Source of the DNA: Marsupella aquatica
Lineage: Eukaryota; Plantae; Marchantiophyta
NCBI GenBank assembly: GCA_973895155.1
Contig: OZ316893.1
Location: 10,421,660-10,485,659 of the forward strand
Length of the DNA: 64,000 nt
Reading direction: 5' to 3'
Shown: positions 341 to 52,718 of the stretch, piece after piece
Layout of the letters: every line of letters starts with the position of its first letter
How positions within the stretch are numbered: the first letter of the stretch is position 1
Position numbers and translations under genes: made by a program
The notes under the pieces: model-generated
Database searches by the model: none
The model's input: the letters and a program-made list of their open reading frames with translations, nothing else
What the model was told of the DNA's origin: nothing

Positions 341-413
341 GGAGACTCCCTTCATGAATTCATGAAGGTCGGAGCGAGAGGGAGACTCCCTTCATGAATT
401 CATGATAGGAGTC
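341..413. repeat. 40-bp-period tandem duplication, each unit containing a palindrome
   Basis: GGAGACTCCCTTCATGAATTCATGA at 341-365 and 381-405. Perfect 20-bp palindrome CCTTCATGAATTCATGAAGG at 349-368; imperfect 30-bp palindrome at 384-413. Confidence 0.9.
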
Positions 414-570: not shown

Positions 571-3500
571 ATGACAATGTCGTAGGAAGAGCTGGTGGAT
601 GACATCTTTTCGCGCCATCCTTTGACGGACTTCCACAACTCATCCTGGACGATTTCCTTAGGGATGGAAACATGGAAGAAGCCCTTCCTAATGCTGTGTG
701 TATTTGAGGGGCTTCCATCGGGGGCATTAGGGTGGGTAAATTACGGCCGCATCGATGTATTTCGACGGGGCGACGAAGTTGTGAACATGTTGATCACAAC
801 GAAGGAAACATCAACTTTGATTGTCGTGGATGTGGAGAGGTTTTCTGGAACGGCTGCCACCTGCTATCTCGATGAGGACATCGATAGCATCATTGAGACT
901 GTCAAGTCTCTTTCGAGTGAGGAACGTTACCACGACGTCGTGGGAAAGATTTCCGGTTTTGTGTTTGAATTTCACGCTAGCACTTTAAAGAGTGCAATCC
1001 GAAAATCAAGAGAGATTCTCCGGAAAAGGTCGGCAGAGAAGGGAGTAAGTCGTCCACCCAAATCTGGGGCTTCCGGTGTTCCTTCTGGATCGAGGCCTAG
1101 CATTTTACCCGATGATATTTTGACCGTGGTAGCGCCTACAACCTCCCGGGAAGCAGCAGCATCTGGAGGGGGATCTCAAGTTGGCAGATCATCCCAGGGA
1201 ACGGCTTTGACTGGTGGGTCGGCACAAGGTACGACTGGAACTCGCATTTCTTCAAAGAAGCGACCTGCTATGACTCCTGAGCCTACCGAGCCCAGTGCTA
1301 CAAAGTCAAAAAAGAAGACTTTGGAGAAAATTCCAACGCATTTGGAGCAAAAGGCTCAATCAATGTCAATGGATGCACGGGTATTGTACCAGGAGGAGAT
1401 TCTGGGAAGATGTGGTGTTCAAGAGGAGACCGTGACCGTTGACATTGGTCAACTTTACCCTCCAGTGAGAGAGAAGGCTGTGGGCTTGCCCATTTACCAG
1501 GTCCGACACATCCAACCATATTTCTTGACCCAATTGACCTTGCGGATGAAGACTGTAGGTGCCAGTCCACTTGCAGCTCCGTTTGTCCTCTTGGTGGATC
1601 CGAAGGAGTGTGCTACTAGGCAAGACTTTGATTTTTCAAGGAAAGCTGATTACCATTATTATGTGATTGGGGGCAACCATTCAGCCTGTGCCAAAGCAGA
1701 CCTTGCTCTTCAGTTCCCTAACAACAAGGCATTTCGGAGAGTGCAATCTTGGATATTTGCGGGATTGAGTGTGCAAGAGGCAAGAAACCTTGCGTGGAGT
1801 CACAATATTGATTCTGAATTTCGACAACAGATGACGACAATCCAGAGAGTAAATTATATTCACATGAGATTTGTTGAGAATGGATTGTCGTCCAACCAGG
1901 ATTTCAAGAAAGAGTGTGCTACTGAAATCAATCTCAAGGATTGGGGTGTACGAAAGGATGCTGAGGTTCTTAATGCCAATGATAACCTATTTCAGTTGGC
2001 ATTCCGACAAGATCCTGTGTGGTCATTTGTGAGGCAGATTTGTGACAAGTGGGAGATGTGTGAGATCAAAGGTCAAAAAGGAGACAAAGGCAAGAAGAAA
2101 GTCTCTAAGTCTGGAGATGCCAAATTGCCTTATGAGGACATGAAATTAACAGAGTGGAGACACATGCAGGCCTTGAAAGATCCTGATATGATTTGCCCAG
2201 TGTTACAAGAGTTCTTACTAAAGAACTCTCTTTACAGGAAATGGGTCACGAATTTACTCGACACAAATTTCAGATGCAGGTGCAGAAGGCCTTCCTCACG
2301 TGTCTACACGAGGAGAGTTGGTCAGGTTGTAAAACCAAGTACCCTGAGCATTGCACAGACAATGTGCTTAAGAATTTTGTACCTGTTTTCCAGACATGGG
2401 TAAGATTCTGTCACCTTTCTTCGAATGATTGTTTGAATTCATTTAATATTTGGAATCCTTGTTTCTAATTCTACAGTTCCTTTTTGTAGAAAGATACCAC
2501 CTCCCGGAAAAAGAAGGGAGATGAGGAAGGCAAAGATCTCAAGTCATTCCCGGACAAATTCAATGCGCATATTGTGCAAGCCCAAAATTGGCTATGCATG
2601 AAGACTTCTAGTCGGCAAACCCAAGAGGGGGAACTTCATCCAAATTCGTTTGAGCATCCAGAGTTTGGTGATGTGCACTATGATATTTTTACTCATGATG
2701 CTCAGCGATTACATGAGGTGGTTCCGGGTCGGGCTTACACATTAGCTTTAGTGGATATTCCCTACGGGTTTGCATTGCCTGGATGTCTTCATGAAGACAC
2801 TATTGGATGGGGAACTGAGGAGATCACAAAAATGGTCCAATCGTTCAAGGTGGCTACTACTGCAAAGTTGTGGCGTATTATCATTCACCACAGCCTTGAC
2901 CAATATGAGGCCATCAAGACCATTTTGAAAGCGGAGTGTAATGGAGGGTTCCAGAATTGTGTGTGGTAAGAAATATTTGTTTTTGAAAAAAACAACTATT
3001 AGTTATTCATGATTTCATGAACCATGTTTCTCAGTTTAAATAACTCCTTGACTTTTTGTGACTTTTCAGGGTTAAGGATAATGTGAAGAATGCTGGTGGA
3101 CCAAGATTGAACAGCAACTTTGAGTGCTTTACAATTGGCTTTCACAGCCAGGATGGTAAACGGTCATTGGAGCACTTCAATTTTGACACAAATGAATCAA
3201 GGAACAATGTGGTTGTATGCGCAGCTGTGACTAAGAAGCTGAAACACAACGGGGATAACAAGGCAGTGAATGTTTATCAGAAACCACGTGCATTGTTAGA
3301 TTGGGAAGTGAGTCATTTTAGTCAGGTTGGAGACTGGGTTTTGGATATTTGTTCAGGATCAGGGACTGGGACAACCTCCTCCTTGGCCATGGGGAGACAT
3401 TGCATTGCCATTGAGATTGACGAGCGACAGAGCAGTGTGTTGAAAGGGAGGATTCTTAACCTTGCAGATAACATTGAAGAGGAAGACGGACAGGGGGAGA

Positions 3501-3631
3501 TGGATGAGGAGAGTGAGGAAGACATTCCTCAGGCCGGAGAGGATAGCGTGGTTGACGATGCCACAATTGTTCCAGAATTGACGACAAGGACTTCTGGAAC
3601 CGAGGAAGGGGAAGCGGTCCCTTTGGATTAG
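571..3631 (+). pseudogene. ParB/Sulfiredoxin-like domain fused to a beta-class N6-adenine/N4-cytosine DNA methyltransferase; exons 571-2399, 2490-2965, 3070-3631
   Basis: ParB-like: VDIGQLYP..YQVR..PFVLLV..YYVIGGNHSACA..LSVQEARNLAWSHN (about 1435-1860). MTase: LALVDIPYG (motif IV, 2754-2765), spliced CVWVK, VYQKPRALL, GDWVLDICSGSGT (motif I, 3344-3367), GRHCIAIEID. GT-AG introns 2400-2489 (phase 0) and 2966-3069 (phase 2) join the ORFs in frame. Lesions: TAG at 583-585 after ATG 571, and a 1-bp frameshift near 2206. Confidence 0.85.
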
Positions 3632-3968
3632 ACTAGATAAATAGAGGGACTCGTAGCATTTGAAACCACTTGGGCTTAAGTTGGGTTATATTTTGTAAAA
3701 CTTTGAGTTTGACTTAAACTCTGATCGATGAGTTTGATTTTGATCACTTTTATAAAGTGCATATTTCAAGGTTTATACAATTGTGAGAATATCATATAAG
3801 ATATGCTTAGATTTTGGTGGTAAAATTCTCTTGAGTCTAGTTTGGAAAATACATACCATTTTTTGGTGGTTTTTTGGTATACACTTTTTAATATCATGAA
3901 GATTTTGAAAAGAGAAATAAGGCTTTGGACTCATCCCTTAAGGCTTCTTGTTTTTGGGTTTGTTGCAG

Positions 3969-5917
3969 GGTTTGGGTTTGTTTCAGGGTTACAAACTCAA
4001 GGGTATAAGGCATGCTCCACTTGTGGTCCAAGCCTTGAAGATATGGCCAAGTACTCAAGATGGCTTCGCAAGATAATCTACCTTGGGCATACCAAGTTTC
4101 TTCCACTTGGACATGAGATGAGGTCTGACCCCCTTCTATTTTCAGACTTTGACATGATCAATGGTGATGAGCGTGACATACCTGAGCATACATCCTTTGC
4201 ACATTGGAAATCCATAGCTGATAGGGTGGCAGACCCTAACGACCCCATGACATTTGATGGAAGTGGGTTGACGAGGTGGAGTATACTAGCCACATTGCCG
4301 TATTGGCCAGAGTTGAAGATTCATCATTTGTTAGACCCCATGCATATAGAGGGAAACATTGGGAAGGCTTTGATCAAGCATTTTTATGGAGAAAAGGACC
4401 ATAATTTTAGGGAGGCATGCCAGGATCTAGAACAACATCCAGATGTATGGATAACAGTTGATGCATCAACAGGGATGGAACACCGTCCTTCATCTCCTTG
4501 GGTTTTGAGTGTTGGTGAAAGAAGAGAGTTTCGACAACGCATAGGTCAGATGCGATTTCCTACAGGCTATGGTGCCAATCTCCGGAAAGCTTTTGGGATG
4601 GAGGACAGTCATAAGTGGCCAATGTATTTGAAGACACATGACTATCACCGTTTACTACAACATATACTTCCTATGACAATCATAGGCTTGGGCAGTGAAG
4701 AAATGCAAGACGCCCTATGGTCATTGGGCACTTTGTTGAGATGGATATGCTCAAAGGAAATATATGAAGAAGAGATCCCACGGATGGAGGTATTGGCAGC
4801 AGAGGTAGTGTGCAAGTTAGAGAAGGCCCTCCCTCCTTCCTTCTTTGATTGTCAAGTACATTTAATTGTTCATCTTGTGAGGGAGGTTGCCATTGTTGGT
4901 CCAGTGCATTGTCGTTGGATGTATTGGTTGGAAAGGTATATGGCTGTGTTAAAGGCTTATGTACGGAATCATGCACGAGTGGAGGGGAGCATGGCAACAG
5001 GATACTTGGCAGCTGAGAGTATGTTCTATTGCAGCAACATCTTAGCTACCATTGATCCTAGTTGTCCATGCAGTTGGATGGAAGAGAGAGAAATGGAGGA
5101 GGATCGTTTAACAGGAGCCAAAAAAACACGCTTACTGACCGGAGTGGAGTTGACACAGATGACTACTTTCATGTTGAGTAATAGTACTGTGATGGAAGAA
5201 TGGAGAGAGTTTTATGAGGATGCAAAGAGGGAGAGTCATCGTCCAAGGATTTTTCCAAAGTTCCTTGAGTATATGAGGGAGAAAGTACTTCAGTTGGATG
5301 CTATGGTGGCCCAAGGTGAGAGTGTATCACATTTTCCAGATATGACTCCTGAGGTTCGAACAATTGTTCATGGCCCTTTGAGACTTGTTCAGACCAGAAC
5401 AGCAATGTGGACACAAGGGAGACATTTCAGCATTTCTGACCTTGATGAGAAGAGGGGTAGAACTTTTGACTGTGGAGTTCAAGGGCAGTTCATGCAGGAT
5501 TCACAAAGTAGCCGCCATGACACCAATGTCATCCGAGATGTGGTGCCTCACTATGGGAAGATAGAGGAGATCTTGATTGTATCCTATGATGCGGATACAA
5601 AATTTGAAGAGTATGTCTTCAAGTGTAAGTGGTTCAAAATTCACTTGGTTGGTGAGAATCGCACAGTACTTCTTGATGATTGTGGGTTTACTCGACTGAA
5701 GACATCAGCAACTAGCTTTCAACCATCTCATTGGCAAACATCTGAACCGTTTACATTCCCAAGTCACCTTGAGCAGTGTTTCTATATTCCGTACCCACCA
5801 GACCCAGAGGAGTGGTCAGTTGTTATACCGTATGTGCCACGATCTCGTTCCATTATCTCAGAAAAACCTGAAGTTATTATTGTGTCAAACGGAGGAGAGG
5901 ATGAGGACCAAGTTTGA
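3969..5917 (+). CDS. CACTA transposase (Tnp2/TnpD-like), 3' exon with DUF4218/DUF4216-type regions
   Basis: Acceptor TTGCAG ends at 3968. Motifs LDPMHIEGN, LKTHDYH, PPSFFDCQVHL, GPVHCRWMYWLERY, VEGSMA, FKCKWF. Collinear with 54014-56210. The upstream transposase exon is not in the window. Confidence 0.9.
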
Positions 5918-6294: not shown

Positions 6295-6671
6295 AAAATT
6301 GCGACCAAATTGGCTTCGGTACTTTGCAACCCACCGTTCTTCACAACAATTTCCGAACATAATAGGTTCACAAACCATTTGTGATAGTATTAGTCTCGCT
6401 AAATTATGAACCAAAATGTATCCGAATACGGTCGCGATGGTCGCGGACTCACAAAGTCATTGCGAGACAACTAGTATCTAAACGTGTTGCGAAGTCAATA
6501 ACATCAAAACTTAATTGCGATGTATGTAGCTTCGCAACGTGAATGTGCGATGGTAAGAGCATGGGATATTGTGATGCGTGTTGCATCACAAAATATCTGA
6601 AGGTTCTAACATCGCAAGGCCTTTTTGACTTCAAAAAACACCTTCGCAAAAGGGGCCGATATGTAGTAGTG
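6295..6671. repeat. CACTA-1 right subterminal repeats and TIR
   Basis: Repeated TTGCGA/TCGCAA motifs (about 6300, 6460, 6488, 6531, 6643) ending in GTAGTAGTG. Confidence 0.8.
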
Positions 6672-7797
6672 TAATTTGGATGAGGCATTGGGATTTGTCA
6701 CTGAGTACATGGTTGACTGTCACGCTACTCGTAGACGTGTTTGGGATTCTGAAGAGGAGGAAGGTGTCAAAGGGGTGAAGCTAGAAGGAGCTGCTGTAAA
6801 ACTGATGCTAAGTTTGGAGGATCGTAATGCAGCTCATACATACTTTCTTCAAAATCACACTATGGTTCAACCATGGCTCAGGTGTGAAAAATCTACTTTG
6901 AGAAGCATTAAAGTAAATGTATTGAGGCTATCCTGACATTGTGCTAGTGGTCCTTTGCCCATTCAACTACTAATTAAGACATGACTGGTTGGTTTAATGT
7001 GTAGGGCATATGAAATAGCAAAGGAGGAGCGGGATCGAAGCTTGATTCATGTTCGCCCGCAGATTGGTGGGAATCGTAGACGAGTTCATTCACATCCACC
7101 CGGGCTGGCTGAGTTACCTCCTTTTATGGACTGGTTCAAGGATCAAATTAGGCTCCATGAGTTTAATGACCCCACACAAAAGTTGTTGTTAAAGACAATT
7201 TCATTTCCACCAAGTTGTACCACATTGTCATACAATGCTATGAAGGCATATGGAAATCACTTTAGAACAATGCATTGTCAGGATCCAAAAGGTAACTGGC
7301 GAGAGATGCAATACCTAAGGGATTGCGACAGTCAAGGTTACAGCACATTTGATAGCGGAATAGCTACTACTTTCCATGAGGAAAGAGTTAACCAGTCCGG
7401 GGCCTGTCTTGCCCGAACGACTTATGTTGGAGTCTTAACTCAGATTTTGAAGCTTGATTATGGTCCCTTACCAGAACCTGCTCTAATCTTGAAGGCTAAG
7501 TGGGTTCGGTCTGAGTGGGAGCCAGAGAGCCGAAACCCATCCATGAAACATGATGAGTCTGGTTTGTGGGTAGCCAACTTCCACCGGCCGTATCCATCAC
7601 AGGAGAAACTTGACTATGTCATGCCTAGTCAGATAGAGCAGGTCTTTTTTCATCCAAATGAGGCTAGGGTAGGTTGGAGGTATGTCCTTCACAAGGAAGG
7701 AAGGTCTAGGAGGGTTGCTACAGAGGTGAATGATCTTGAATTTAATGACATAGTTGTGATGCCTAGACAGGAATCACTCGGCCGGTTAAGTGGGTAA
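6672..7797 (+). pseudogene. 3' remnant of a different, older CACTA transposase, interrupted by CACTA-1
   Basis: Begins mid-motif (NLDEALGFVTEYM) directly after the CACTA-1 TIR. In-frame intron 6882-7004. Downstream AYGNHF, DSGI, YVGVLTQILKLDY, LKAKWV, PSQIEQVFF, GWRYVL are DUF4216-type motifs. Confidence 0.8.
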
Positions 7798-7869
7798 AGC
7801 AGGAAGGCACCCTAGGAACACCTTAGTATAGGGACAAAACAAGGAAAATATAAACAATTAGGGGCAACC

Positions 7870-10800
7870 ATGGAACCCGGGCCGAGGCCGGAGGTAAGGC
7901 TAAGGGTGAAAACCCGATTAGGGTTAGGGCACGTTAAGCGTCGGTGGCTAGGAAGGATCAACGGGAAGAAGGACCGGCAGAGGAGAGGGGTAAGGAGCGC
8001 TTGCAGGAGATGGTGGCTCATTTGCGAGCACGAACTAGGCAGACGACTACGGGAGGCCAACTACTGTCAGCTGCTTAGGCAAGCACTCGGGGAGAGAGTA
8101 GATACCGACGATCGACCTAAGGAGGGTATGAGCAACGTAAATCAAGCAACACATTTCTGGGGATGCCTGTTCGAACGGGCAACTGAGTACATCAAGACTT
8201 ACGAGGACGAGGAGTCAGAAAGGGCAGCTCAAGAACAGCAGGAGCTCGCTCGATTGTGGGAGCTGCAGAAGACGGCTTTCTTAGGAGGCGAACTCATCAA
8301 GGACGAGTTCCTATGGACGCCTACTTCCAATCAACTCGACGATCTTCTGTTTTGCAAAGACAGCGTCGTCGGCATCCGAGAGGCCATCAAGAACTGCAAT
8401 GACATACACTGGGAATTAAAGGGTAGCACGGAAAGGTGGACCCAGGCAACGGTGCTAGGAGAAACCTCCACGGCAGCAGAGATGAAGAGGAAGGGAGCCG
8501 TCAACGATGAAGCCACCCCGGCAAAAAGAACGAGGTCGGCGGCACCAAAGAAGCCAGCCGAGCAGCAGAGCAGGAGGCAGGGAGAAGCCGAAGAGGAGGA
8601 GGTCGATCCCATCAAGGCCATTCCAACCAGGGATGACACCTGGAAGGGCTGGGCGGCAACCCTACCGGTGGAGGTGCAACTACATTTTGCACGGGAGGAG
8701 GATGCATGCTTTACGGCCATGCAGACCAAGAAGTACCAAGGCTTCATGGCCGGATCCGGCTTGGAGGCCTTTGTAAGATTACCATGGCTGAAGCCGGAGG
8801 TACCGGAGTCAGACCTATTAGAATTCGTGGGGTCATGGGAACCCGAGACCAATTGCACGAGGATATATGGGAAGGATTTCTATCTTACTTCCAAGGTAAT
8901 TGCCGAAGTGTTTGGCCTGCCGATAGGCAATAAGACCAAAGTTGATACCAGGAAGACCTTGCCTGACAAGGAGTTCCGGTCGTTCCCCGGCCATCAACGA
9001 AGAATGGCTTCTTCCGGAACACCTGCACCAACCCGCACATAGGAGAGATGATCGACTTCTTGCGGGTGACCATGCATTGTAACTTGCCGAGGGCAGAGAT
9101 CGGCAAGGCACAGGTCTATCTGGCAGAAAGGCCAGACCCAAGCCGGGACTACAACGGGTACCTCCTCAACCAATTGAAGAAGATCTTAAAGGAGGAGCAG
9201 CAGGTAATCGGCATGGGGAGCGTGTCGCGGCTTGGCTATCACATGCCGCTGTTGTGCCGGTATGCCAGAGGTCAGACTTTTGCCCCGGTACTTCCCCTGC
9301 AGGTAAGGGCACCCGAGGAAGCTCCAACGCCGAGGCCGTTGGCTGAGAAGCCTCAACCACCTGTTAGTCCTACGATCGAGCAGGTGTTTAGGCCCAGGAA
9401 GGAAGACTTGCCGATGCAGCAACCAGGCATGCAGAGTCTGCTGAAACTATTGGAGAAAGAAAAGAAATCGGCATCGGCAACAACAATGGCAACGGCAACA
9501 ATGCAGGACACTACTACAGAGGTAGGCCTACACCGGCTCACAAGAGAAAACCCCTTTGCTGGAGACAAGGAGAGAATCAGGCCGGAATCCAAGCCAGGTG
9601 TTCGAATGTACGTGGGAACCTCAAGCTCCGAATCTGAGGCAGAATTGCCTGAAGCTCCTACCGACGAAGAGGAGAGGGAGAAGCCGGACGTCCAAGAGGT
9701 AGAGGAGGTAGTGGAGGACTGCAACCATGATAATTCCGGCTATGGGTCGGACCATCACGTTCCAGGAGTAAGGACCTGTGGCCGGTTTGTCCCCACACTT
9801 CCAAGGGTAGTGCGAGGGGACCCCAACCAGCAGAGTAGCCCTGAGTCTCCCCCACCAGATGTTGCTCCCCCGAGCTTCGACGGCATAAAACAGACGGTGC
9901 AGGAATTTCAGGAGCGAATCAAGCAGGAGGAAGAGGCCGCCCTGGCTAAGGAAAAGGATTTACCAGGAGGAGATTGGCCGGAGGACATCAGGCGGCTAGC
10001 CGAAAAAGGAAGCAAACCTCTAGCCACGATTGAAGAGATCCGCAGGACGGCTTGGGAGCAGAGGCCACGATGGGCGATGCCGATCACTTCTACTTACTCC
10101 ACCTACGCTAAGAATAGAGCCATGGAGTATGGTGAGATGTGTGGGGAACTTGCGCTCGGCATCTTTGGAGAGGAGTTGGAGGTAGGACCCCTTTTCCATA
10201 GGGAGCAGTTGGAGAAGCACCAATTAGAAGAAGCGGTGGCTTTAGAGAGAAGCAAGAAGGACGAGGTCATTCGGCGGCTTAGGAGGATGGAAGCCGAGAT
10301 TGAAGATCTAAGGGCGGCCAAGAAAGCCCAAGATGAACTGCGGATTAAACGACATGAGCTGAACATCATGCAGGGGCAGTTGGACACCGCGCAGGCTGAT
10401 AATCAGAATATCAAGGATAAATTGACTCAGACGCAGGAAGAGTTGGCCGACACGATCAAAGAGAGGGAGAAGTGGAAGCAAGAGCTGAAGAATACAGAGG
10501 AGGCCCACATAACAGCCAACAGCCGGGCCATGGCGGAGACCCAAAGAAAGGAATGGGCGTTGAAAGGGGAGCTCGAGAAAATCCGCGGAGCCCTTGAGCA
10601 GAAGGAGGTCGAGTTAGGGAAATCCTATCAAGGGATTATGGCGCTGCAGCAGGAGCTTGCGTCCCTGACGGCCAGCTTCAAGGCCGACCTAAGGGAGAAG
10701 GACGAGATGCTCGAACAGACTTACGCCAAGATGAACCAGATGGAGTCTGTCATCATTGCAGAGCTCGACAAGGAGCTAAGAGCAACCCGGGAGGAGAGGG

Positions 10801-11492
10801 CTACCTTGAAGAAGGAATTGGAGGAAGCCCACAGGGAGCAGGAGGAGGCCAAAAACGAGCTGGAGGGGGCACCTAAGGACCTGGATGAAACCCAAGAGGA
10901 GTTGGAGGAAATCACGAGGAAGATGGAGAACCTACAGCGGCGGGCCGACAACCAAACAGAGCGGCTGAAGAAACAAGCCGCAGTATTTAAATGCTTAGCT
11001 GCAGCAGGTCCATCTCCCGTTGGGACAAACCAGTTACCAGGGGTGGTAATTGCCGAAGGACAAGCCGCGTCAACTGCACCAGTGCCGGAAGTAAGTGGGA
11101 AGGGGAAGGGACCAGCTGCCGAGCCACCAACGAAGAAGAAGCGGAAACCTTCAGGGTCAAGGAGTAATACGACTTCACAGGCCGTGGTGATCAAGGAGGT
11201 AGACCTAGCACCGACCCCAGACAGGGTCACGGCTAAGGATCCAACTACCCTAGGGGAAGGGGAGGCCGAAGCCGAGGGAGTGGCTGAAGCCGAAGCCGTG
11301 GGAGTGGCTGAGGCCGAAGCCGTGGGCATTGCCGAGGCCGGTGTCGAGGCTGAAGCCGAAGGTGGACCCAGTCAGGCTGATGGAGAGTTGACTCGGTCAA
11401 GGGCAGGTAATATGTCAGTAGGCGGGCCAACGGCAGTGGCTGAGGAGGAAGTGTTGGGGGCGTCCATTGAGGATCCACCACCGGTGTCGTGA
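7870..11492 (+). pseudogene. Large retroelement-like accessory ORF (plant-transposon/mobile-domain-like N-terminal part plus long coiled coil), frameshifted near 8975
   Basis: ORFs 7870-9042 and 9048-11492 join through one frameshift. LLEFVGSW..IYGKDFYLTSKVIAEVFGLP resembles plant transposon ORF/PMD-like segments. E/K/Q-rich heptad region at about 10200-10980. GC- and CpG-rich relative to its flanks. Confidence 0.5.
11262..11360 (+). repeat. In-frame 24-bp tandem repeat, about 4 copies (EAEAxGVA)
   Basis: GAGGCCGAAGCCGAGGGAGTGGCT-like units. Confidence 0.8.
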
Positions 11493-12696
11493 CGGTGCAA
11501 GGGCGCCGTTCCTTTTAGGGAGGGCGGACGTGGAGGGAGGAGGCGTGAGTGGGCAGGGCGGGCGCGGATCTCCACGTTTAGGATTAGGATCAGAACCAGG
11601 AGCGGCCCTGACACTTAGCTTAGTGGGATTGCGGTTCCACTGGTAGGAGCAACACTTGTGCTCCTGCCTTACTATACATAGGTAGATTCGGGCAAGTAGA
11701 TTACTGTCAGGTAGATTAGGCTTACGATGCAAAGAATGGCGGATCCACTACCAGGATAAGTACCTGGGCAGCGGGGAGCTCAGGGCCTCTTCTTTAGCAA
11801 GTTTTTAGTTTGCACCAGCCGGGCTGGGATCAAGTAGTACGAGAAGCTCTCGGTTAGTCATACAGTGACCCTTGTGTATATTCATGTTTCCTCATGCCTA
11901 AGAGCTGAATAGAGTTGGCCTCACGGCTTAGTTCGCAGAACTTGTGTATGAGATGTACTGTTTGTATGGCAAGTGCATGGTATGACTCAGTCAGAATGAG
12001 TCATTTTGCTATTTGTGTGTCGCATTAACTTGTGTGAAGAGTGCCCACATCAACAGAAGGAAGGAAAGTAAGCAGGGGAGTGAGAGTTGGATGTGTCGAG
12101 CTGAGAGAGATCTTAGCGGCTTAACCAAGCCTATTGGGGATCATTCCGGCGGCGGAATCCAAACATACCTAACAAGAAGACAGGGGAAGACAGGGGAAGG
12201 CCTATATTAGGCCGGCTACGTATCTCATGACCCGATGAAGGATCTGTCCAGTATATGTGTGTAAAATGTTAATAGTAGTAGTAGAAGGTTAGCAGCGTCC
12301 CATGCCGCTAAGCCACGGAAACGGCCTCGCCAAGCACGAAACCTGCGGGAATCGGCTTGAGCTGGGGGGTTTCTTGGGTTTAGGGAGCCATGGGACGCAC
12401 CACAATCTTGGCCAAACACATTCTTCCTGGCGATAGTAACTGCAAGCAAGGGGGAGACAGGGAGAACAAGGAGAATAGGGAGGCAACTCACAATGGAGCT
12501 AGGTAGCTCATGATCAAGCAACTTGCAATTGCAGCAATAGTAGTCTTAGTAGCAAGCGATTGAGCTCCAGGAAATGACAAACCCGCAGCTGAGTCCTCAA
12601 TTGACAAAATGTTCGCCACTCGACCCTCCTTCCAACTGCAACCGCCAGATAGTAGGAATAAGATAGAGAGGTTGCAGCCTTCTCAGTGATCCAATA

Positions 12697-15594: not shown

Positions 15595-15609
15595 GAATCT
15601 GTTGAGCAT

Positions 15610-16798
15610 AGACGCCATTTGAAATGAGATATGGGCGTCCAACGGATTACTCACATCTGAGGATTTTTGGATGTGATGCTTATGTGCTTACACCTTCCCA
15701 GCTTCGATCCAAGCTGGAGTCCAAGTCAAAGAAGTGCATTTTCCTTGGCTATTAGAAAGGTGTGAAGGGTTATAGGTTATGGGATCCAGTAACCTGTAAA
15801 CTAATTGTCAGTAGAGATGTGTCCTTTAATGAATCCATATCATCAAAGGAGGGGGAGAGTTCTCAGGACTCCCATACTGACAAGGGGAAATCTCCCATCC
15901 TGGACCGGGTTGAGGGGGAGATTAGTCATGATGTTGTTCATGACAGGAGAGATGGAGAAGCTCTGGGCTTGGAGCTGGTTCTTGTGATGGAACAAGAGGA
16001 GCAGATTGTTGCTGGGGTACCTCAAATTCAGCCAGCAGTAGTAGCAGATTAGCCTGAGTCATCTACTAGAAGAACTTCTAGCCGTTCTACTAGAGCTCCT
16101 ACCAGGTATGGTCAATGGACAGACTCATCTAAGCTAGATGATATTGACATTGCACCTGATGAAGATGTCATGGCTTTGATCTTGGAAGAAGGAGAGCCTT
16201 CTTTGTACAGTGAGGCTTGTGCTTCAGAGCAGAAGCATGAGTGGAATGCAGCAATGCAGAGGGAGTTGCAATCTTTGAGTGACAACAAGACATGGGAGTT
16301 GGTGGAGCTTCCAAGAGGTCAGCAAGTGGTGGACAGCAAGTGGATTTACAAGTTGAAGGATAGTCCTTCAGAGGGTGGAGATAAGATCTACAAGGCAAGG
16401 CTTGTTGCCAAGGGGTTCACTCAGGAGAAAGGAGTGTACTACAATGAGGTCTTTTCACCAGTGGCTAAGTATTCCACAATTCGGATCTTGTGTCAACTTG
16501 TTGTGTTTTTTGGTCTGGTGATGGATCATATGGATGTTGTTACTGCTTTTCTCTATGGCAACTTGGAAGAGTTGATCTTCATGAGACAGCCACTAGGCTT
16601 TATGAAGAAGGGCCAAGAAAACTTAGATTGCAGATTGCTCAAGTCCTTGTATGGATTGAAGCAGTCTCCCAGACAGTGAAACAAGCGGTTTGATGATTTC
16701 ATGCTTGCTCAAGGTTTTACAAGGATGGTGTATGATCCTTGTGTGTATACAAAATCAGTCAAGAATGATGTGTTTGATTTCATCATTCTGGTTATTTA
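15610..16798 (+). pseudogene. Copia integrase tail to reverse transcriptase fragment
   Basis: HLRIFGC, SKKCIFLGY, KGYRLWDP, SRDVSFNE, KWIYKLK, YKARLVAKGFTQ, MDVVTAFLYG, LLKSLYGLKQSPR. It stops just before YVDD and contains internal stops. Confidence 0.9.
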
Positions 16799-17561
16799 AG
16801 TGGTATCAGAGCATGCCTGGGCGATGACGAGGTTTTTTTGTGACAGGTTTTTTGGTATCAGAGCCCCCTTTAGGCCTATTTTAAACCTTTTTTTGCTTCC
16901 TCTTGTTTTACTTGGTGCCGGGACCTGCCGCCCTCCATTTTAATTGCTCCAACAGGGGGAACGGCCCCCTGTGAGACCTGTCGGACTGTGCAGGAATATT
17001 CTCAAAAAACAGAGACTTGTTTTTTGGCCGTCCGACAAAGATTTTGTCCGCCAAACGGTAACTTTTTTGGTTCTTTTTTGGCGAGGACGTTGCCACTGGA
17101 GTTAGCAACGCGGCGCACCGATCACATTGCGATTCCGACGACGGGTTGTACTAGGTATTTTGGTTATTCTCCAAGATGGTCAAAATGGGGGAGTTTCCCA
17201 AGGTTTTACCCACCCCGACGGAAATTTGAATAACATTTCCGTCGAATTTTGATTTTGATTTTGGCTTTCAGTATTGGACTCCTAGCTTTGTGGGTTACGC
17301 GGCGGTGTTGAGTTTTGAATTTTGTGAGAAGTTTTGAAAAAAGACATTTTTTCGTGATTGTTTCATATGAGTGACTCGGAGGATACTGGAAGAATTGGCG
17401 TCGGTGAAGCTTCAAGATCGCGACGGTCAGACGAAGAGTCTGAGGAGGAGCTGCTACCGTTTGAGGAGGAACTAGTATCACTGGTATGATCATCGGTGAG
17501 GCGTGCAGTGGAGGAAGCTGTACTACTACCAGAGCTGTCTGTAGTAGGGAAGAAGAGGAAG

Positions 17562-17966
17562 ATGGCTAGATTTGGAGGAGTGAAGTTTGAGGTGGAGAAG
17601 TACGATGGTCGTACTGATTACTTATTGTGGGAGAAGCAAGTGAAGGGTGTCCTTCAGGCCATGGGCTTAGCTCATCTGCTCTCTTCGCGAGAGCAGTATG
17701 ATGGAGAGGAGGAGATTTTTGTGAGATAGTGGAGACAAGAGCAGGTGATTGTTGTCAATGCAGTGATGCTATATCTCAAGCCACACATCATCAAGTAGCT
17801 GGATGATTATGCGGATTGCGTGTCACTGTTCAAGGCTCTAAGAGAGAAGTACTACCGGGAAGATGCGTCAGACCGGCTGTACAAGAAGTCTCTCTTGATG
17901 AGTCTCAGGCTCAAGGAAGGGAGCAAGATGCAGATCACCTGGATGAATTTGACAGTCTAGCGGTGG
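17562..17966 (+). pseudogene. Copia gag N-terminal fragment, preceded by a PBS (16853-16864) and leader
   Basis: MARFGGVKFEVEKYDGRTDYLLWEKQVKGVL is a typical Copia gag start; frameshifts and stops follow. Confidence 0.8.
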
Positions 17967-18021
17967 AAAAAACCCATCACAAAAAAACCTCGTCATCTCC
18001 CAAGCATGCTCTGATACCACT

Positions 18022-18364
18022 TGTTGAGCATAGACTACATTTGTAACGGCAAGCCATGAACCATCCAACGCACAATAGTCGACACAGAGAGATACGTGGT
18101 TCACCTCCACATGAGGCTACATCCACGGGAACACACAAGAGCTTTACTGCACTCTAGGCCGACCGGCCATACCAAGCATCCACAGCACAAGCTCTCCCTA
18201 TCTCTCAACTAGCTCCATAACAATGAGCCTAAGTTCCACCAGGGTCTGGCATCAGCCTTGGCTATATGCACAACAACACTACCGCTAACATTAGCTAAGT
18301 CCTAACCCGAGTTAGACTAACTATGGTTAGCTCATGAGTCACAAGACTAGAGCAATATCTAACA
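18022..18364 (-). repeat. LTR (343 bp) of the inserted Copia-derived element, with PBS(Met) at 18019-18008
   Basis: Minus strand reads TGTTAG...CTCAACA followed by AG-TGGTATCAGAGC. Confidence 0.85.
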
Positions 18365-19024
18365 GAATCGTCCATGGTTTGCCATAGGAAAAGCACGAGC
18401 AAACATTGCTTCCTCTCCAGCAAAAACACGAGTACCACGTCGACTTTCTTCTCCGCGAATGATGTTTTCCAATTGTGAAAAAGACGGCATATGTTCTCGT
18501 CCTGCAAGAACAGCACCAAAGGTTTCCCAACTACGAGGGAGAGTGTCAATGATTACGCCCTGCAATTCTTCATCAATGAAAGAAACTTCTACAGCAGCAA
18601 GGTCATTAAGCAGCTCATTGACAGTGCTGAAATTAGTAGCCATGGAAGCAGATTTGGGAAAACGTAGACTGAAAAGTTTCCGCTTAAGTACAACACGACG
18701 TGAAGTTGTATTGCTTGCACAAGCATTACGAATCTCTGCCCAAAGGAGTGCAGGATCATCAATTCTGACATAACGAGCAAGCATCTTATCCTCAACTGCC
18801 TTGGTCAGCATGTATAATGCTTTGTTCTGAGCTGTGCAACGCTCAGCAGGAGTGGGATTGACAGGATCATTGTGGTCAAAAATCACTCCAAGAAGATTCT
18901 CCCGCACGACATACCAAATCTTCTCCTTGATGAAACTCTGCTTCATCTTGTAGGACCATAATGGGTAGTTATTCCCATTAAGTTTCTCGTCCTTGGACAT
19001 AGAGAAATTCAAGTCCTGATTCAT
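18365..19024 (-). CDS. Copia A gag, N-terminal part (UBN2-type)
   Basis: KLNGNNYPLWSYKM, LKRKLFSLRF, IIDTLPRSWETF; interrupted at the TSD. Confidence 0.85.
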
Positions 19025-40009: not shown

Positions 40010-42190
40010 CTAGCAGGTCCAGGCGGACACTGAGACGACGGGGGTGTTCTGCCACCCTAGACTGAGAGCTGCACCTTCTCCAGTAAGCTTGTAGGCCCCA
40101 TTGTATAGCCCAAGCAAGAGCTTGGCCTGGTACACAGCATAACCGCTCAAAGCCAAATCCTTGAATCCTGCTTGCCGTAAACACATTTGCCAGCTCTCGG
40201 ATCGAATATGACGAACGCTGTTATGAGACCTTCCCTGTGCCAAAATGCTCCTGATATTCGAAGCGAAATGAATCTTCTCGATTCTCAACCGTTCTGTGCT
40301 AGATCTGCCAAGAGTGGCCTCAAGGCAATCGAATAAGGCGCTGTAGTGGTGCAAGGCTTCTACAAACCTGCTTAGGAAGGACGGCAGGTTATCGTTGGAC
40401 TCCACTTCCACCACAGCAACCACGACGGGGTTCAGCGAATTGACCATGTTCAAGATTCCTTGGAGAGCCCTCTGCTGGTGGTGGCGCCCCAACGACCGAT
40501 TCAGAACGTTTGCACAGTTTACTGCGAGGCTCTCCCCGAGGTGCACTCTCAGGACTCCAGCATCGAGATTCTCGAGATACGTCTCCACAACATAATTGAA
40601 CTCGAGAGGCACCTGGTGAGAAGCTGCAAATTCACAAAGACGCCTCCCCGTCTGCTGCAAAGTAGTACGATCCGTACCAACACCTGTAATTTTGAGGTGG
40701 CAAGGCTTGCCCCGCACCGAGAGAGACTGAATAAAAGACGGCCACTGCAATCCCTGTCCTATGTCGAGGTCCACCACATGGATGCGATCGTCGCAACCCA
40801 CGGCTTCCAGGATTGCCTGATTCGCCGTGAAGTGCGCAAACTTGACATACGGCACGACTTGGTAATATGCTTGGTAGGCAACATGTGAGTCCAAAGACAA
40901 AGGGCTGAAAGCCTCCGTTGACTTTGGCTGAGATGAAGCCACTGTTGTGTGAATATATGTGGTATCGGTGATCATAGCAATCTGCTCGGCGAGAGCCTCA
41001 CTGAAGTAGACTGCGATTCGTTGCATCGCATCACCGAAAGGAGAGGCCATGCTTGTCAACCGTGACAACATTTGCCTCCCGAGCTCGTAGTTCCCCTTCT
41101 CGACTGCCTCAGCACAACCTAGCAAGAGCTGCACAAGGTAGAGACCCGTCTCCTCTTGGGGCTGGGTTTCTGGCTGAGCAGCTATTACTCTTTCCTGGTG
41201 CTGAAAGCCTCCAAAACCTTCGCATTGCTTCACCATTTGACCCCCTAGGTTTCCAGTTCTGCACGACCTAAGGTCAGTATGGGACTGTCGGTTTTGAAGA
41301 GTGGTTGAGCTCTGCTGAAAATCTTCGAACTTCACCTGTACTAGATGAGAATCCAACATTTGTGACAAAGGGTCCGTCCCGACTCCAGTCTGCTCGTTGA
41401 GCAACTGGCAGAGGGGATCAGTGAGCATTTCTTGGTCCGGCTCTGGTAAGAACATCATCGCCAAATGCATATTGTCCGAAGAGAAGTTCTGCAAATCCTC
41501 AACATGAACTCCTCCCGAATTTTCCAGCTGCTGCACGCTCTCGCTACGAGAGCTTGTAAAGGAGCTCGTAGTCTGCGTATCCGAAGTCGTGTCGCCATCC
41601 AACAAGGAGTCGAGAATATCTCCGTGATCGTGAGGGTCTCCCATACAGTCTTCCCATGAAGCCGTCATATGATCATTGCCCGCATTGGAATGAAACAAGG
41701 AGACGTTAGCAAGATGGCTTTTCCTCTCGTCGCCCGGGTACGAATAGCTATCGCAATAGTTGCTCGAGAAGCTCTGCTGCCTGGAGACACTCTGAACAGA
41801 CCTCGCAGACGACGACTCTGGAGATCCATGAACTGAGCTCCTGCTCGGGCTACTGCCAGGACTAGGAGCCATGTGCATATCCAGCACAGAAGTGGGCTCA
41901 GAGAATCCGTACTGCTCCTTCTTGAGGTTCAAGGGGTGCAGGTCCATGGCTGGAAGCATGAGCGGCTCGACCATGGGAGGCAGGAAACTTGTCAGATCAG
42001 TGGAGCCCGTGCTTGTCATTGAATTCTCCATCCACATCTCGGTGTGCAGGTGATGTCTCAATGAGTTGACCGAGCTCCTCATCATCAGGCCGGAACTCGA
42101 AGACAGAGCTGGAAGGGAGCACATTTGTGGCTCCCGGTTGAATATTGGAGCAAGCTCAACAGCGCAGTTGTACAAATACCCACTTGACAT
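40010..42190 (-). CDS. GRAS family transcription factor (726 aa, intronless), most similar by eye to the RAM1-like group
   Basis: LHRI LVQLLLGCAEAV, PFGDAMQR, PYVKFAHFTANQAILEA, VHIID-type IHVVDLDIGQGLQWPSFIQSL, PFYRE-type RFVEALHHYSALFDCL, and SAW end LGWQNTPVVSVSAWTC. Intact ORF. Confidence 0.95.
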   Translation of the reverse strand: MSSGYLYNCAVELAPIFNREPQMCSLPALSSSSGLMMRSSVNSLRHHLHTEMWMENSMTSTGSTDLTSFLPPMVEPLMLPAMDLHPLNLKKEQYGFSEPTSVLDMHMAPSPGSSPSRSSVHGSPESSSARSVQSVSRQQSFSSNYCDSYSYPGDERKSHLANVSLFHSNAGNDHMTASWEDCMGDPHDHGDILDSLLDGDTTSDTQTTSSFTSSRSESVQQLENSGGVHVEDLQNFSSDNMHLAMMFLPEPDQEMLTDPLCQLLNEQTGVGTDPLSQMLDSHLVQVKFEDFQQSSTTLQNRQSHTDLRSCRTGNLGGQMVKQCEGFGGFQHQERVIAAQPETQPQEETGLYLVQLLLGCAEAVEKGNYELGRQMLSRLTSMASPFGDAMQRIAVYFSEALAEQIAMITDTTYIHTTVASSQPKSTEAFSPLSLDSHVAYQAYYQVVPYVKFAHFTANQAILEAVGCDDRIHVVDLDIGQGLQWPSFIQSLSVRGKPCHLKITGVGTDRTTLQQTGRRLCEFAASHQVPLEFNYVVETYLENLDAGVLRVHLGESLAVNCANVLNRSLGRHHQQRALQGILNMVNSLNPVVVAVVEVESNDNLPSFLSRFVEALHHYSALFDCLEATLGRSSTERLRIEKIHFASNIRSILAQGRSHNSVRHIRSESWQMCLRQAGFKDLALSGYAVYQAKLLLGLYNGAYKLTGEGAALSLGWQNTPVVSVSAWTC

Positions 42191-42780
42191 ATGTGCCTTC
42201 CTTTGCTGTGATCAACTTGGATTTTTCAAAGCAACGAGGAACACAACACAGATGGTACACTTTCTCGCTGAGCAATCCGACAGACTCGGGGACAGACTTT
42301 GTCGGCAAGAATTACCATCCCCAGCAGTCTATGATCCTCTCCTTAATGCTTTTGTCTACTGAAATCCAAACAAACTCTAAAAACATGCTTACTGAGCTAG
42401 CTACGTACCCAAGACAGAACACACCTCGCGTGACCCACTCCTTGACTACAGTGCACCAGCTCTCCAACTGGAGAAGAACACTGCGGAATTGCGTAATCCT
42501 TAGACTGAGTCAGTGAGTCACTCCCTTCTTAATAAACGAGTTCCGCCGGTCGAGCAGTTGTACACATTGGCGTGGACGACGTACACTAGTCAACCCACAC
42601 AAGCACAACGCGTGAGCATGACGGTCGAATGAGAGAGCAGAGCGAGCGCTGCCTATTAAGGGAAGAGGAGTCCGCCCCGCAGAAGAAAGAAGGCGATACT
42701 TTGATCGAGAGAGAGGAGCGATCGAGCAACGAGCAGCATGGAAGGGAAGGCATACAACGAGGGCCGACTACAGAGCGGGT

Positions 42781-45700: not shown

Positions 45701-48128
45701 TCTACACAAGCTCAAATGCATTACGTCAATTTCATTAAGCTTCCTAGTTTTCACCACCTGCAATAATTGCATTGCAGTGAATGTTGGAAAAGCTATATTG
45801 TCAGGCCCATAGTTTTTTAGCATGGCCCAACTCCATGAGTTTATGCTATCCTTGCATCTATGTCTCTGTACTTGTGAAAGATAATTCATTTTCTCTTTGC
45901 AACACAATTCCCTTGTTGGGAATATTTCTGGGAATCCATTATTAAGTCATCAAATTAGTAACCTCTCACTTCAGTTCCTCATGCAGTTCTCATGTTGATC
46001 TCAAATCGGTGCCCCCTATGATCTTAATTTATGGATTGATTTCTTTAAGGCAATCAAAAGTTAGACATTCAATCAACATCATCATTTCAAAAATAGAGAT
46101 TTTCAGTTTATATAATTCTATGTGGCTTCCAAAGTGGGGAAACCAAGCAGGTGGGGAAGAGGGTGTCACTGTGTATCAGGTTGTCAATTACAAAAGACCA
46201 TGTCCAGTCCAACGATGAATTTTCATATGATTTTAATCTCGGGGTCCTTTCTTTTCTCCCAACCCATCGTGCACAAATCAGTTAGGAAATGTTTTTGAAT
46301 TGGGCGGAAGACTTTCAAATTTTAGCTGAAAGTTATGGGTGTTCTCATCCAATTTTGAGAATTATAAGAACTGTAGGGTGTTTAATACTAAATCTACAAA
46401 TATTTCTTAGAGTACTCCATAAAGTTTTGGTTCAAAAATATTTTCCTAAACTTTAGGTTCTTTATTACTTGAACGTGACATGGGACTCTATTGGAATGAG
46501 GCCCCCAAGATTTTAATTGACCAAAGGCTTATAAGTGTAGAATATAAAAGGTGTTGACAACACAAATATAGAGATATTTGTTTTGTATGCCTTTCAAAAG
46601 TAAACAGGTCATTTTCAAAAGAGGAATGTTTCTAAAACATTCCCTTCACAAAAGAAGTTATTTTAGGTAGGCCAAAGTTGCACACAATAACCAAAAAAAT
46701 ACACCAAGTGACCCCACTACCAAGACAGTGTGGACTACAAATCTCATGAAGCTCTTTATTTAGTTGATTTCAAGGTAGGGGATTGGACTTGAGTATATTT
46801 CAACATTTTACACTGGGGTAAGAGTTTTCCACCTAGAGTCCCTTCCACAAACCTAGATTTTGATAAAGAGAACCAAGAATATGGTGTGCAAGCAACTTTG
46901 CCTCTTCGGGTCATTTCCTTGGCTGCAGGGACCGGAAAAGAATCCATCAAACATTTTCCCGACCAGTCACAGTCAGAATCTTTATCCTCATTGTCAAGTA
47001 GTGCTGGTCGGGGAAATTTATTGAACGCCTTATACCTAGTTTGGAGCTTTCTGTAAGTAGGAACAATATCACTTTTTCCACATCTCCTCGTCACGTAAAA
47101 GAGCAATAGTTAAATGTTTTTTTCACTTTTCTAACAGTATTTGGGGTTTCGTCTTTGAGTCTGTTGAGATTATTTTCTAGCAGTCCTCATGGCTGACTAA
47201 CATTGCTTTTGAGTCTTGTGTGCTCATATGGGTCCTATGACACTCCTTTGAGTAATATCCGGCCTAACTGTGTTGCTCAAATGCTTTTGGGATGTCCAGG
47301 GAAAAAATTAGAAATTAGGCAGATAGAAGAACAGCATTGTCGTGGAATTGCCCTATCTTGTGCAGCAGTGGAATGCTGAAGTGGAAGCCTCCATTCATGA
47401 AAGAATGAGGCCTGAGTATTCCTTTGCATCAACGTAGAGTGCCACTACAACACTACCTACACCTTTTGCGAACTTGAAAGCATCGCAAACAACAAAGGAA
47501 ATCAAAAAACAAAACTCGTCTTTGCGAAGTATCGCGCATCGCAATAGAATCGCAAACTGCGAAGCCCAAAGGTTCGCATCTGGTCTTTCGCAAGACCTTC
47601 GCAACGCCTTCGCAACTTGCGACACTAATAGAATCGCAAAGGACTCACATTTAAGCGACTCCATGCGCGTCGCGAGAGGATTGCGATAATAATCAAGCAG
47701 TTAAATATTTGCAATCCCATGAGTTTGGTAATATATTTGCAATATTAAGTGAATGGTAGTTATGGCATGAAGATCGCTTCGCATTTTTGTGAACTTATGT
47801 GGTTTGCATAATATTTGCGATACCTTCAGTATGGTAAATATGCGATTTGGGTTGTTCGCATAGGTTTCGCAAGATGTCTTGAGGCTAGGGTTTAGATTTA
47901 GAGTTTTGAATTATGGTTGGGGTCTTGTTGTCCAACACGGAGAATGAGGTCTGAATCAAAATTTCTTTATAGAAAATTGATAGGTACACAAAAATTAGGG
48001 TTTCCTAAACCCTAAACCCTAGATGGGTGTCATATGACAAGCTAGGTCCCTATAAGACTACCCATGATATCAAAACTATATACTACACTAAGTAAATGGG
48101 CATCCCATAGGCACTACACCACCAAGCT

Positions 48129-50095: not shown

Positions 50096-51395
50096 AGCTA
50101 AGCCACCCCCCGAGCGCGCGCGAGCTCCCTTCTCCCTCCCTACGCTTGAAATTTGTCAAATGCCGCTGAGTACGCCGCGGCCGAGTGCAAAAGTACAAGC
50201 GGGAAAGACTTGCGAAGCAACCCGTTTCGCAAGTTGCGATCCTTCTAGTTTCGCATGTAGTTTCTCAATTTTGCGAAACCATTGCGACATGAAAGGCTTC
50301 GCAACACCTTCGCTCTCTCGCAGAAATGCTCTCGGGCTCTGTTTTTCTGAAGGTCATGCGAAAGCATCAGCTTCGCAAAACTCAATTCTAATTTGTGACG
50401 GTATTTGCGAAGGAAGCGGCTTCGCAAGACATTGGCAACTCGTCCTGGGGGGGATGTTGGTTTCATTTGAAAGGGTTTTTTTCAAAGGTGAAGTGGACCC
50501 CTCTATACTCATATTTGGAATGCTTTTTGGCCATGTTTTGGGTGTTAGATAATAGTTGAAGGCGGGTTTGAAGGGTTAGGCAAATTTCAGGTTAATGGGT
50601 TATGTATGGTGTTGGTTTAGGCTAAGGTTTGGGTTTACATTAGTTTAGAAGAAATAATAAAGGTGTGGGATTTGGTTTACAAGAAATAAGTAAGGTTTGG
50701 GTTTAGGGTTTTAGGGTTTGGGGTTTTTAAATAGAAAGGTCTCTAGGGTTGAAGAAAGGTTTGGGTTTGTGTGTAAGTCAGATTTAGGTTTAATAGGTAG
50801 GATGCGGTTTGGGGTTGAAGGTTTGGATAAGACAAAGCAAGGTTTCATGAGATTTATATTGCAGCCTTTTGGGTTTAAGAGAGGTTCATTGGGTTTATGA
50901 ATCAAAAAGGGATTGGCATGGGTTTTGCTAACAAAGGAGGGGAATATATGATAGCTTGCAGGGTGCGGCACTTTTTGATGATTTGATACTAATGCATATG
51001 CATTGTGAGAGCTCGGGCATCTGAAAGGTAAACATTGCATGATCGGCTCAAGTGTTCCTTTCATGTACTTAATAGTTTTGGTTGCCACTATGTATAAAGG
51101 GGACATGTATATAGGGTTTTTTGTTCTTGTCTGGTCCAGATTATTGTGCTTACATATACATGGAATGGTTGCAGCTTTTCCCTCATACTTTCAGGTTGGG
51201 TTCATTAATTATCTTAGAGCCACAAGACCATTTGGCACTGCTGAGCCCGGGTCTCATAAAGGTACCTTTTTTATTGCTATGGTCATTTTGGTTTGGGTTT
51301 CTTGTTATCATTATTTGGGAACTTTGATTTATATCATTTTGTGGTATGTTTTGGTCATAACATGCCCATTTTAATTATATCTTGTTACAGGGGAT

Positions 51396-52542: not shown

Positions 52543-52718
52543 GGTTAAGTTAAGGGTCATAGGTGGTATGTTGCATATCAAAGGACACTACATATGGCCT
52601 TTGGCCACATTTTGTATTTGCACCACAACCAATATTATTTCATTTTTGCACACCCCTAGCCCATTTTTGTGTGTGTTCTCTTTGCAATATAACTTTCAAT
52701 TGTTTGCTTTGTTTTTAG

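Follow-up and report, generated by a model that had tools for sequence, protein, structure and literature searches.

Why should a liverwort genome hold a DNA methyltransferase gene of prokaryotic type, fused to a ParB-like domain, split by introns and followed at once by a transposase exon? The gene lies at 571-3631 of a 64,000-nucleotide stretch of Marsupella aquatica (contig OZ316893.1, positions 10,421,660 to 10,485,659; hereafter the window), and it is likely the accessory cargo of a young family of CACTA DNA transposons. Concerning its role, we give a probability of about 0.5 to the reading that intact copies bind palindromic boxes (TCATG-N4-CATGA) of their own element, deposit N6-methyladenine (6mA) nearby, regulate the promoter of the gene and aid the element's escape from host silencing.

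Gene model and condition of the window copy

The gene and its two lesions are arranged as follows.

571..2399, plus strand: exon 1, starting with ATG at 571 and encoding an N-terminal domain (about residues 1-150), a low-complexity linker, the ParB-like domain and a helical region
583..585, plus strand: premature TAG at codon 5, in CHG context; other copies have CAG
2207..2208, plus strand: one-nucleotide deletion (frameshift), missing from most copies; homologues remain in frame
2400..2489, plus strand: intron 1, GT..AG, phase 0
2490..2965, plus strand: exon 2, the N-terminal half of the methyltransferase, with motif IV (DIPY) at 2754-2765
2966..3069, plus strand: intron 2, GT..AG, splitting a Trp codon as TG/G
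3070..3631, plus strand: exon 3, with QKP at 3278-3286, motif I (DICSGSGT) at 3344-3367, an acidic tail and the stop codon at 3629-3631

The original prediction that two canonical introns and a frameshift yield one protein of about 950 residues held well: the product has 955 residues when an X is placed at both breaks (the stop and the frameshift). Comparison of sequences gave independent support to both predicted introns. The annotated spliced protein P0014 of Calypogeia fissa (63% identity over 404 residues) is joined at both intron sites, and the homologous loci L001 and L002 are interrupted at both positions by GT..AG introns whose phases match those of the window gene. In the window gene intron 2 splits the Trp codon as had been said, and the W-V-K motif spans this junction. 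At the intron-1 donor, conservation ends at W/V in 11 of the 13 exon-1 homologues. In a set of 150 representatives, the sequence runs uninterrupted across the intron-2 site in 35 and across the intron-1 site in 20 (some of these rows are spliced annotations); at the intron-2 site, 7 terminate and 8 begin. By these counts the introns appeared to have been gained, as had been supposed, and in a stepwise manner. One additional intron near residue 122 is found in L001-L003 and is absent from the window gene.

The window copy cannot make the protein, as it carries both the stop at 583 and the deletion at 2207; the latter had been recognised before and the former missed. In contigs from public runs, T583 is C in all covering depth (564/564 in X1, 1303/1303 in X3 and 19.9/19.9 in X5; run X7 has no coverage of this position), and the extra base behind 2207 is present in 574 of 811 depth in X1 and 1964 of 2742 in X3, as well as in X2, X4 and X6. 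Most copies in these runs are free of both lesions. Nine substitutions in the gene and 3' flank separate the window copy from the X1 majority; seven of them are C>T or G>A changes in CG or CHG context, as expected from deamination of 5-methylcytosine (5mC) placed by the host.

Purifying selection on the family is strong, as estimated from codon substitution rates. The nonsynonymous rate (dN) is 0.13-0.29 and the synonymous rate (dS) at least 2.2 in all three pairs of the window, L001 and L002 (dN/dS about 0.06-0.10), and the lowest dN against the window belongs to exon 3 (0.20-0.23). In the public runs, 23 of 38 exonic variants were synonymous, among the 40 of 498 variants that were listed. 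The observed/expected ratio of CG is 0.38-0.48 in the methyltransferase gene versus 0.34 in the transposase, and a CG-rich stretch (0.83-0.90) is confined to the 5' part of the gene. By this comparison of gene and transposase, no sign of long-term protection from 5mC was seen across the gene body.

The fused protein and its family

On its modelled fold, the enzyme is a beta-class amino-methyltransferase with a permuted Rossmann fold, as its motif order had indicated. Pfam N6_N4_Mtase (PF01555) matches exon 3 with an E-value of 4.7e-9, past the curated cut-off, and the order is motif IV (DIPY, residues 699-702), target recognition domain, motif I (residues 861-868 or so). The fold was modelled from the sequence of the homologue P0014 with a predicted local distance difference test score (pLDDT) of 91. 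This model superimposes on CcrM with Z 24.7 and a root-mean-square deviation (rmsd) of 2.8 Å over 220 residues (Foldseek E 9e-13), and matches M.BceJIV (Z 23.9), M.MboIIA (22.4), M.RsrI (20.9), rotifer N4CMT (20.5) and M.PvuII (20.1).

With regard to the product, the original prediction considered 6mA and N4-methylcytosine (4mC) undecidable. We consider 6mA the likelier predicted product, because motif IV is led by Asp in 52 of 55 family rows (Asn in 2, Ala in 1) and by Ser in none, and because DIPY is the motif IV of HindIII-like N6-adenine beta methyltransferases in the passage cited (PMC12294265). A leading Ser is the hallmark of N4-cytosine enzymes in the cited parts of three studies (PMC4738411, PMC8885841, 10.1101/2021.02.12.428880). 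The second position of motif IV is variable (I 24, F 9, V 8, L 6, A 5 and P 3 of 55), and Pro and Tyr follow in 52/55 and 43/55 rows. In QKP, Q and K are each retained in 58 of 61 rows. Motif I (D-I-C-S-G-S-G) starts with Asp in 51 of 57 rows and keeps its glycines. Identity with Marchantia DN4MT1 was ruled out on motif IV alone.

The ParB-like part comprises the following features.

1426..1830, plus strand: ParB/Noc N-terminal fold, residues 286-420 (AlphaFold2 model, Foldseek, Z 9.9)
1666-1683, plus strand: IGGNHS, at the site of the ParB arginine patch
1837..2058, plus strand: helical region aligning weakly with the DNA-binding helix-turn-helix (HTH) domain of ParB, pLDDT 51-84

An AlphaFold model of residues 248-545 was built from an alignment of 15 sequences (mean pLDDT 71), and the top ten Foldseek matches were all ParB, Noc or PadC. 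Superposition on Myxococcus ParB gave Z 9.9 and an rmsd of 2.4 Å over 95 residues. In this model the ParB/Noc N-terminal fold is confirmed, so that the proposed ParB fusion was borne out by structure despite the lack of any ParB match in Pfam or PHROG for exon 1 or its 13 homologues. HHalign of the family's ParB alignment against one phage ParB fusion returned a probability of 0.1. The first 150 or so residues match neither Pfam, PHROG nor Atlas.

A profile made of the ParB and methyltransferase parts retrieved 1276 representatives at E <=0.001 and 79 at E <=1e-30. Both domains were present in one chain in 20 of 163 proteins examined. When the clusters of 20 proteins were looked up, 12 had a named one, namely Chara braunii (4), Riccia sorocarpa (4), Ginkgo, Adiantum nelumboides, Holothuria and Ptychodera, and separate searches found the fusion in Calypogeia too. 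Several divergent paralogues each are present in Chara and Riccia. The animal-type members P0145, P0164 and P0191 retain the ParB domain and the scaffold of the methyltransferase but have lost motif IV, in whose place DMP or DVP precedes a residue that is not aromatic.

We reconstructed a quick tree of 49 methyltransferase domains, in which family rows were picked with the family's own profile and many are unnamed; four of 53 rows without a detected motif were dropped (phage L007, P0091, P0162 and Chondrus P0256). The 36 family rows fell on one side and 13 phage or prokaryote-type rows on the other (Shimodaira-Hasegawa-like approximate likelihood ratio test support 99), and the window sequence paired with Calypogeia (91). 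The single phage fusion in the tree fell outside the family, in a thin sampling. Phage matches, among those listed, covered the methyltransferase part only, at no more than 31% identity. No match to P0014 was found by tblastn in phages and plasmids, and pattern scans of low sensitivity found no relatives in viral contigs or prokaryote genomes. On this tree and distribution, the prokaryotic ancestry is old and common to eukaryotes, because the fusion forms a wide eukaryotic family separate from the prokaryote-type rows. The original prediction of a bacterial or phage module captured inside a plant transposon does not agree with a fusion that spans Chara, Riccia, Calypogeia, Adiantum, Ginkgo, Holothuria and Ptychodera.

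Boxes, transposon and proposed role

Three perfect palindromic boxes accompany the gene.

352..365, unstranded: box 1, TCATG-AATT-CATGA, a candidate operator or parS-like site with a counterpart in L001 and L002
392..405, unstranded: box 2, 40 bp past box 1, the same distance as in L001 (42 bp in L002)
3007..3020, unstranded: box 3, TCATG-ATTT-CATGA, inside intron 2, with a counterpart in intron 2 of L001 and L002

L001 has four perfect boxes (1233, 1273, 4375 in intron 2, and 346) and L002 has three (316, 358, and 3215 in intron 2). These counts were reached by none of 100 shuffles of the window and none of 200 each of L001 and L002. In the three loci, splice signals aside, the boxes are the clearest conserved islands upstream of the gene and in intron 2, and their positions are conserved where synonymous sites are saturated. 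One more perfect box lies in the remaining 60 kb of the window; none occurs in a sister CACTA element that lacks the methyltransferase (47443-57171), nor in the short locus L003. Spacers are AATT, AATT and ATTT in the window, ATTT, ATTT and ATAT in L001, and CTAG at all three boxes of L002. We infer that each locus would encode the binder of its own boxes. The ParB-HTH part is the putative binder, because boxes occur only beside the gene and their spacers are near-constant within a locus and differ between loci. That the boxes are CACTA subterminal repeats was ruled out, since the repeats of the sister element are TTGCGAA..TTCGCAA.

Upstream in L001, an open reading frame (ORF) on the minus strand (2-703) diverges from the methyltransferase gene and has one perfect and one near-perfect box, 63 bp apart. 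A double-box scan of viral contigs gave seven loci, none with a relative of the family (best E 0.03), and so provided no evidence for the boxes. In an unrelated viral contig (L016, 6001-6953), which encodes no family member, a double box stands just upstream of a ParA-like gene with a small downstream ORF; the other phage matches resemble operators.

Downstream of the gene lie two parts of the probable carrier element.

3969..5917, plus strand: 3' exon alone of a CACTA/EnSpm Tnp2 transposase, with the end of Transposase_21, DUF4218 and DUF4216
6642..6671, minus strand: right CACTA terminus, reading CACTACTACATATCGG inward, within another transposase-like gene (6672-7797)

The transposase exon begins 337 bp past the methyltransferase stop on the same strand, and Pfam recognises in it DUF4218 (7e-33), DUF4216 (4e-7) and a partial Transposase_21. 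The terminus at 6671 resembles the end of the sister element at 57171. Contig depth in X1, which is not a copy number, is 540-621 on the gene, stays on a plateau about 30-fold above the flank as far as the CACTA terminus, and drops from about 500 to 17-18 past the junction; in X4 it is 2960 versus about 80 in the flank. Tens of near-identical copies is the simplest reading of these values. Furthermore, the high-depth path runs from the 3' flank of the gene into the transposase intron (601-624 at 3880-3891), and a second, diverged subfamily also links the gene end to this intron (joint 3637-3890). The depth plateau, the terminus and the adjoining Tnp2 exon make it likely that the gene lies, as predicted, within a plant DNA transposon. 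It could occupy the first intron of the transposase, or belong to a non-autonomous or mosaic element. Contrary to the earlier suggestion of a domesticated module, its behaviour is that of multi-copy cargo of a transposon, with decay by CG/CHG deamination.

The sister element at 47443-57171 has both termini, TGC/TGT flanks and a complete transposase of three exons with 80% identity in the transposase. In place of the methyltransferase it has an ORF with a SET domain (51727-52539; Pfam SET E 2e-5), and chromatin-modifying cargo therefore differs between related elements. As for the sequence around the right terminus, 6672-7797 is the 3' part of another transposase-like gene, and the sequence of an X4 relative continues upstream of 6682. 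Within the transposase exon, 4358-5900 is 3-7% diverged from the majority contigs versus 0.3% for the adjoining gene, which would fit a mosaic copy or separate amplification.

In the mechanism that we propose, a dimer of the protein would bind the boxes of its own element through the ParB-HTH part. Beta-class enzymes act as dimers (PMC7544214, in the passage cited). The fused enzyme would then methylate adenines near the boxes on that element, and the marks would control the gene's own promoter and counter silencing by the host. This purpose is suggested by analogy with VANC and with proposals made for algal elements (see below). The wider proposal, that land-plant CACTA elements carry a prokaryote-type read-and-write system, self-contained and sequence-specific, in which the ParB-HTH part loads at parS-like boxes, the enzyme writes 6mA and the element stays active, is less likely than not.

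Several observations weigh against this role or against the transposon setting that it presumes. For the protein, the HTH region is poorly modelled: the helical region aligns with 6t1f over 167 residues (Z 8.5, rmsd 4.6 Å) at low local pLDDT, and alignments that reach the DNA-binding domains of 6t1f, 7nfu and 5k5d have rmsd of 4.3-5.7 Å where the model is weak. The nucleotide-binding arginine patch of ParB/Noc CTPases is G-x-x-R, and a phage ParB has GHGR at this position. The window protein has GNHS there, and across the family the arginine position is Ser (37), Gly (9), Thr (8) or Cys (5) in 59 of 69 rows; the clamp driven by cytidine triphosphate (CTP) may be lost, because this arginine is replaced. 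In motif I, the Phe of most bacterial enzymes is replaced by Cys in the window protein; across the family this position is Cys in 38 and Phe in 15 of 57 rows. By fold, 6mA cannot be told from 4mC, given the match to the rotifer N4-cytosine enzyme (Z 20.5). For the element, the depth plateau is no count of copies, the boxes are carried by three loci only (window, L001 and L002), and no transposase was found in the stretches of L001 and L002 at hand. The 5' exon of the transposase was not found in the 64-kb window, and the left part of the element lies before base 1. In addition, the X1 majority differs from the window by 19/274 and 10/293 letters in the transposase versus 6/2593 in the methyltransferase, and the two may not have amplified together.

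The last two points also bear on the alternative that survives best, although we consider it unlikely, in which gene and boxes are an independent mobile cassette or passenger that came to lie within an intron of a CACTA transposase. The boxes would then serve as its own operator or mobilisation signals and be useless to CACTA. The missing 5' exon beside the gene and the unequal divergence would be expected of such a passenger; the unrelated divergent ORF upstream in L001 and the movement of algal accessory genes between transposon superfamilies fit it as well. It is opposed by the high-depth path into the transposase intron, by the diverged subfamily with the same gene-transposase link, and by a plateau that ends at the CACTA terminus.

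Less probable still is the same role with 4mC as the mark, as made by rotifer N4CMT and Marchantia DN4MT1. Such a mark is present in a liverwort and could directly block 5mC of the host, and the matches to N4CMT and M.PvuII given above are compatible with it, but no family row has the Ser of N4-cytosine enzymes, the top structural matches are N6-adenine enzymes and DIPY is of the HindIII-like type. To a similarly low degree we credit the idea that the protein serves at the boxes only as a repressor or scaffold that binds DNA, with an inactive or RNA-directed methyltransferase. Persistence of the animal members without motif IV indicates that the family can survive without catalysis, and motifs IV and I of the window protein deviate from the textbook consensus. 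However, plant members keep the catalytic and S-adenosylmethionine-binding residues under strong purifying selection with dN lowest in exon 3, and the same variants of both motifs are shared with the prokaryote-type enzymes P0250-P0253 (the motif I Cys with P0253; DIPY is found among prokaryote-type matches). The least probable view, that of a domesticated host enzyme with broad methylation of the plant genome, like DN4MT1 in sperm, could draw on the introns, the purifying selection and the range from Chara to Ginkgo, but it does not fit the many near-identical copies, the position inside a transposon, the divergent paralogues of Chara and Riccia, or the stops that are common in homologous copies (TAG in L002 at 627-635, at codon 3 and resembling codon 5 of the window, and in L001 at 2851-2853; L003 also contains stops).

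Elsewhere in the window, 7816-12600 is a very high-copy repeat (summed X1 depth 30,000-75,000) with ORFs of 408 and 841 residues that contain coiled coils; neither ORF has a significant Pfam match, and the repeat is probably part of a long terminal repeat retrotransposon. Copia fragments lie at 15600-19000, a host gene with a GRAS domain at 40013-42211 (minus strand), and PIF/Harbinger-like remnants (Plant_tran, NAM-associated) at 62480-63926.

Comparison with known systems

Accessory genes with ParB and an N4/N6 methyltransferase in algal transposons are already in print. The cited passages describe a 1104-residue ParB-like plus N4/N6 methyltransferase accessory protein in Ectocarpus Sola1-1_Ec32 and propose a class of such proteins, each binding and modifying the transposon that encodes it (PMC12477816). 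What is new here is a young land-plant family with lesion-free copies and a candidate binding site, TCATG-N4-CATGA. In the literature covered, which did not extend to subscription papers, Iyer 2011 or the bioRxiv supplements on Bostrychia and Marchantia, neither this gene in land-plant transposons nor the boxes were found reported; the bioRxiv supplements may bear on novelty. In the passages concerned, the algal self-marking proposals take a few sentences with no experiment reported, and the window locus offers a testable land-plant case, for which both a chemistry (6mA) and a 14-bp site, preserved beyond the saturation of synonymous positions, are predicted. Should the mechanism hold, a plant transposon would write its own DNA mark against 5mC silencing by the host, which would be a new anti-silencing strategy. 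It would also supply a defined, transposon-encoded enzyme for part of the 6mA of non-flowering plants, as well as a methyltransferase that is compact and site-directed. Nanopore data from liverworts, with base calls for both 6mA and 4mC, are already available.

By its published description, the Ectocarpus Sola1-1 protein is a close parallel. It shares the two domains (1104 versus 955 residues) and the setting in a eukaryotic DNA transposon, whereas it belongs to a brown alga and a Sola element rather than a land plant and CACTA/Tnp2, and the window gene lies on the transposase strand and has candidate binding sites. The supplement of that paper has table rows for this element, but a search of it found neither 'ParB' nor 'methyltransferase' as text. 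In red-algal Plavaka elements (EnSpm), as far as the cited parts of the preprint describe them, PAG2 combines PF01555 with SET and PAG3 combines ParB with a 2OG oxygenase, and inverted repeats stand beside the ParB gene in Bostrychia (10.1101/2025.02.11.637652). Thus ParB, amino-methyltransferase and SET cargo and repeats near the ParB gene recur in the EnSpm superfamily, but ParB and methyltransferase occupy separate Plavaka genes, while in the window they are fused and SET belongs to the sister element. A Chondrus protein with SET and methyltransferase domains matches the window family weakly (E 7e-5).

Among enzymes, CcrM, M.MboIIA, M.RsrI and HindIII-like DIPY enzymes resemble the window protein in fold, in the order of motif IV, target recognition domain and motif I, and in an Asp-led motif IV. 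At about 20% identity to CcrM-type N6-adenine enzymes, the window protein differs in its additional ParB and N-terminal domains and its introns. ParB, Noc and KorB share the N-terminal fold, a helical region after it and palindromes of 14-16 bp near the gene; they differ from the window protein in their arginine patch, which it has replaced, in a segregation role that is not evident in it, and in the methyltransferase fused to it. Marchantia DN4MT1a/b and bdelloid N4CMT are likewise eukaryotic beta-class amino-methyltransferases of prokaryotic type, but, in the passages describing them, they are enzymes of host genes that have SPPY and produce 4mC; N4CMT has a chromodomain in addition, and DN4MT1 no extra domain. 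In the parts of Iyer et al. 2016 cited here, the ParB-linked clades of Emiliania, chlorophytes and chytrids are unpermuted or group 2, and DIPY does not occur in its supplement. AMT1-type 6mA is, in the passages cited, tied to transcription and often lost.

The working analogy for the proposed role is VANC of VANDAL transposons, with no homology claimed. According to the passages cited, VANC is an anti-silencing protein that removes 5mC, and its cognate non-coding repeat motifs differ between families (PMC5735166). Both systems would thus pair a transposon-encoded protein with cognate non-coding motifs; whereas VANC removes 5mC, the window protein would add a mark.

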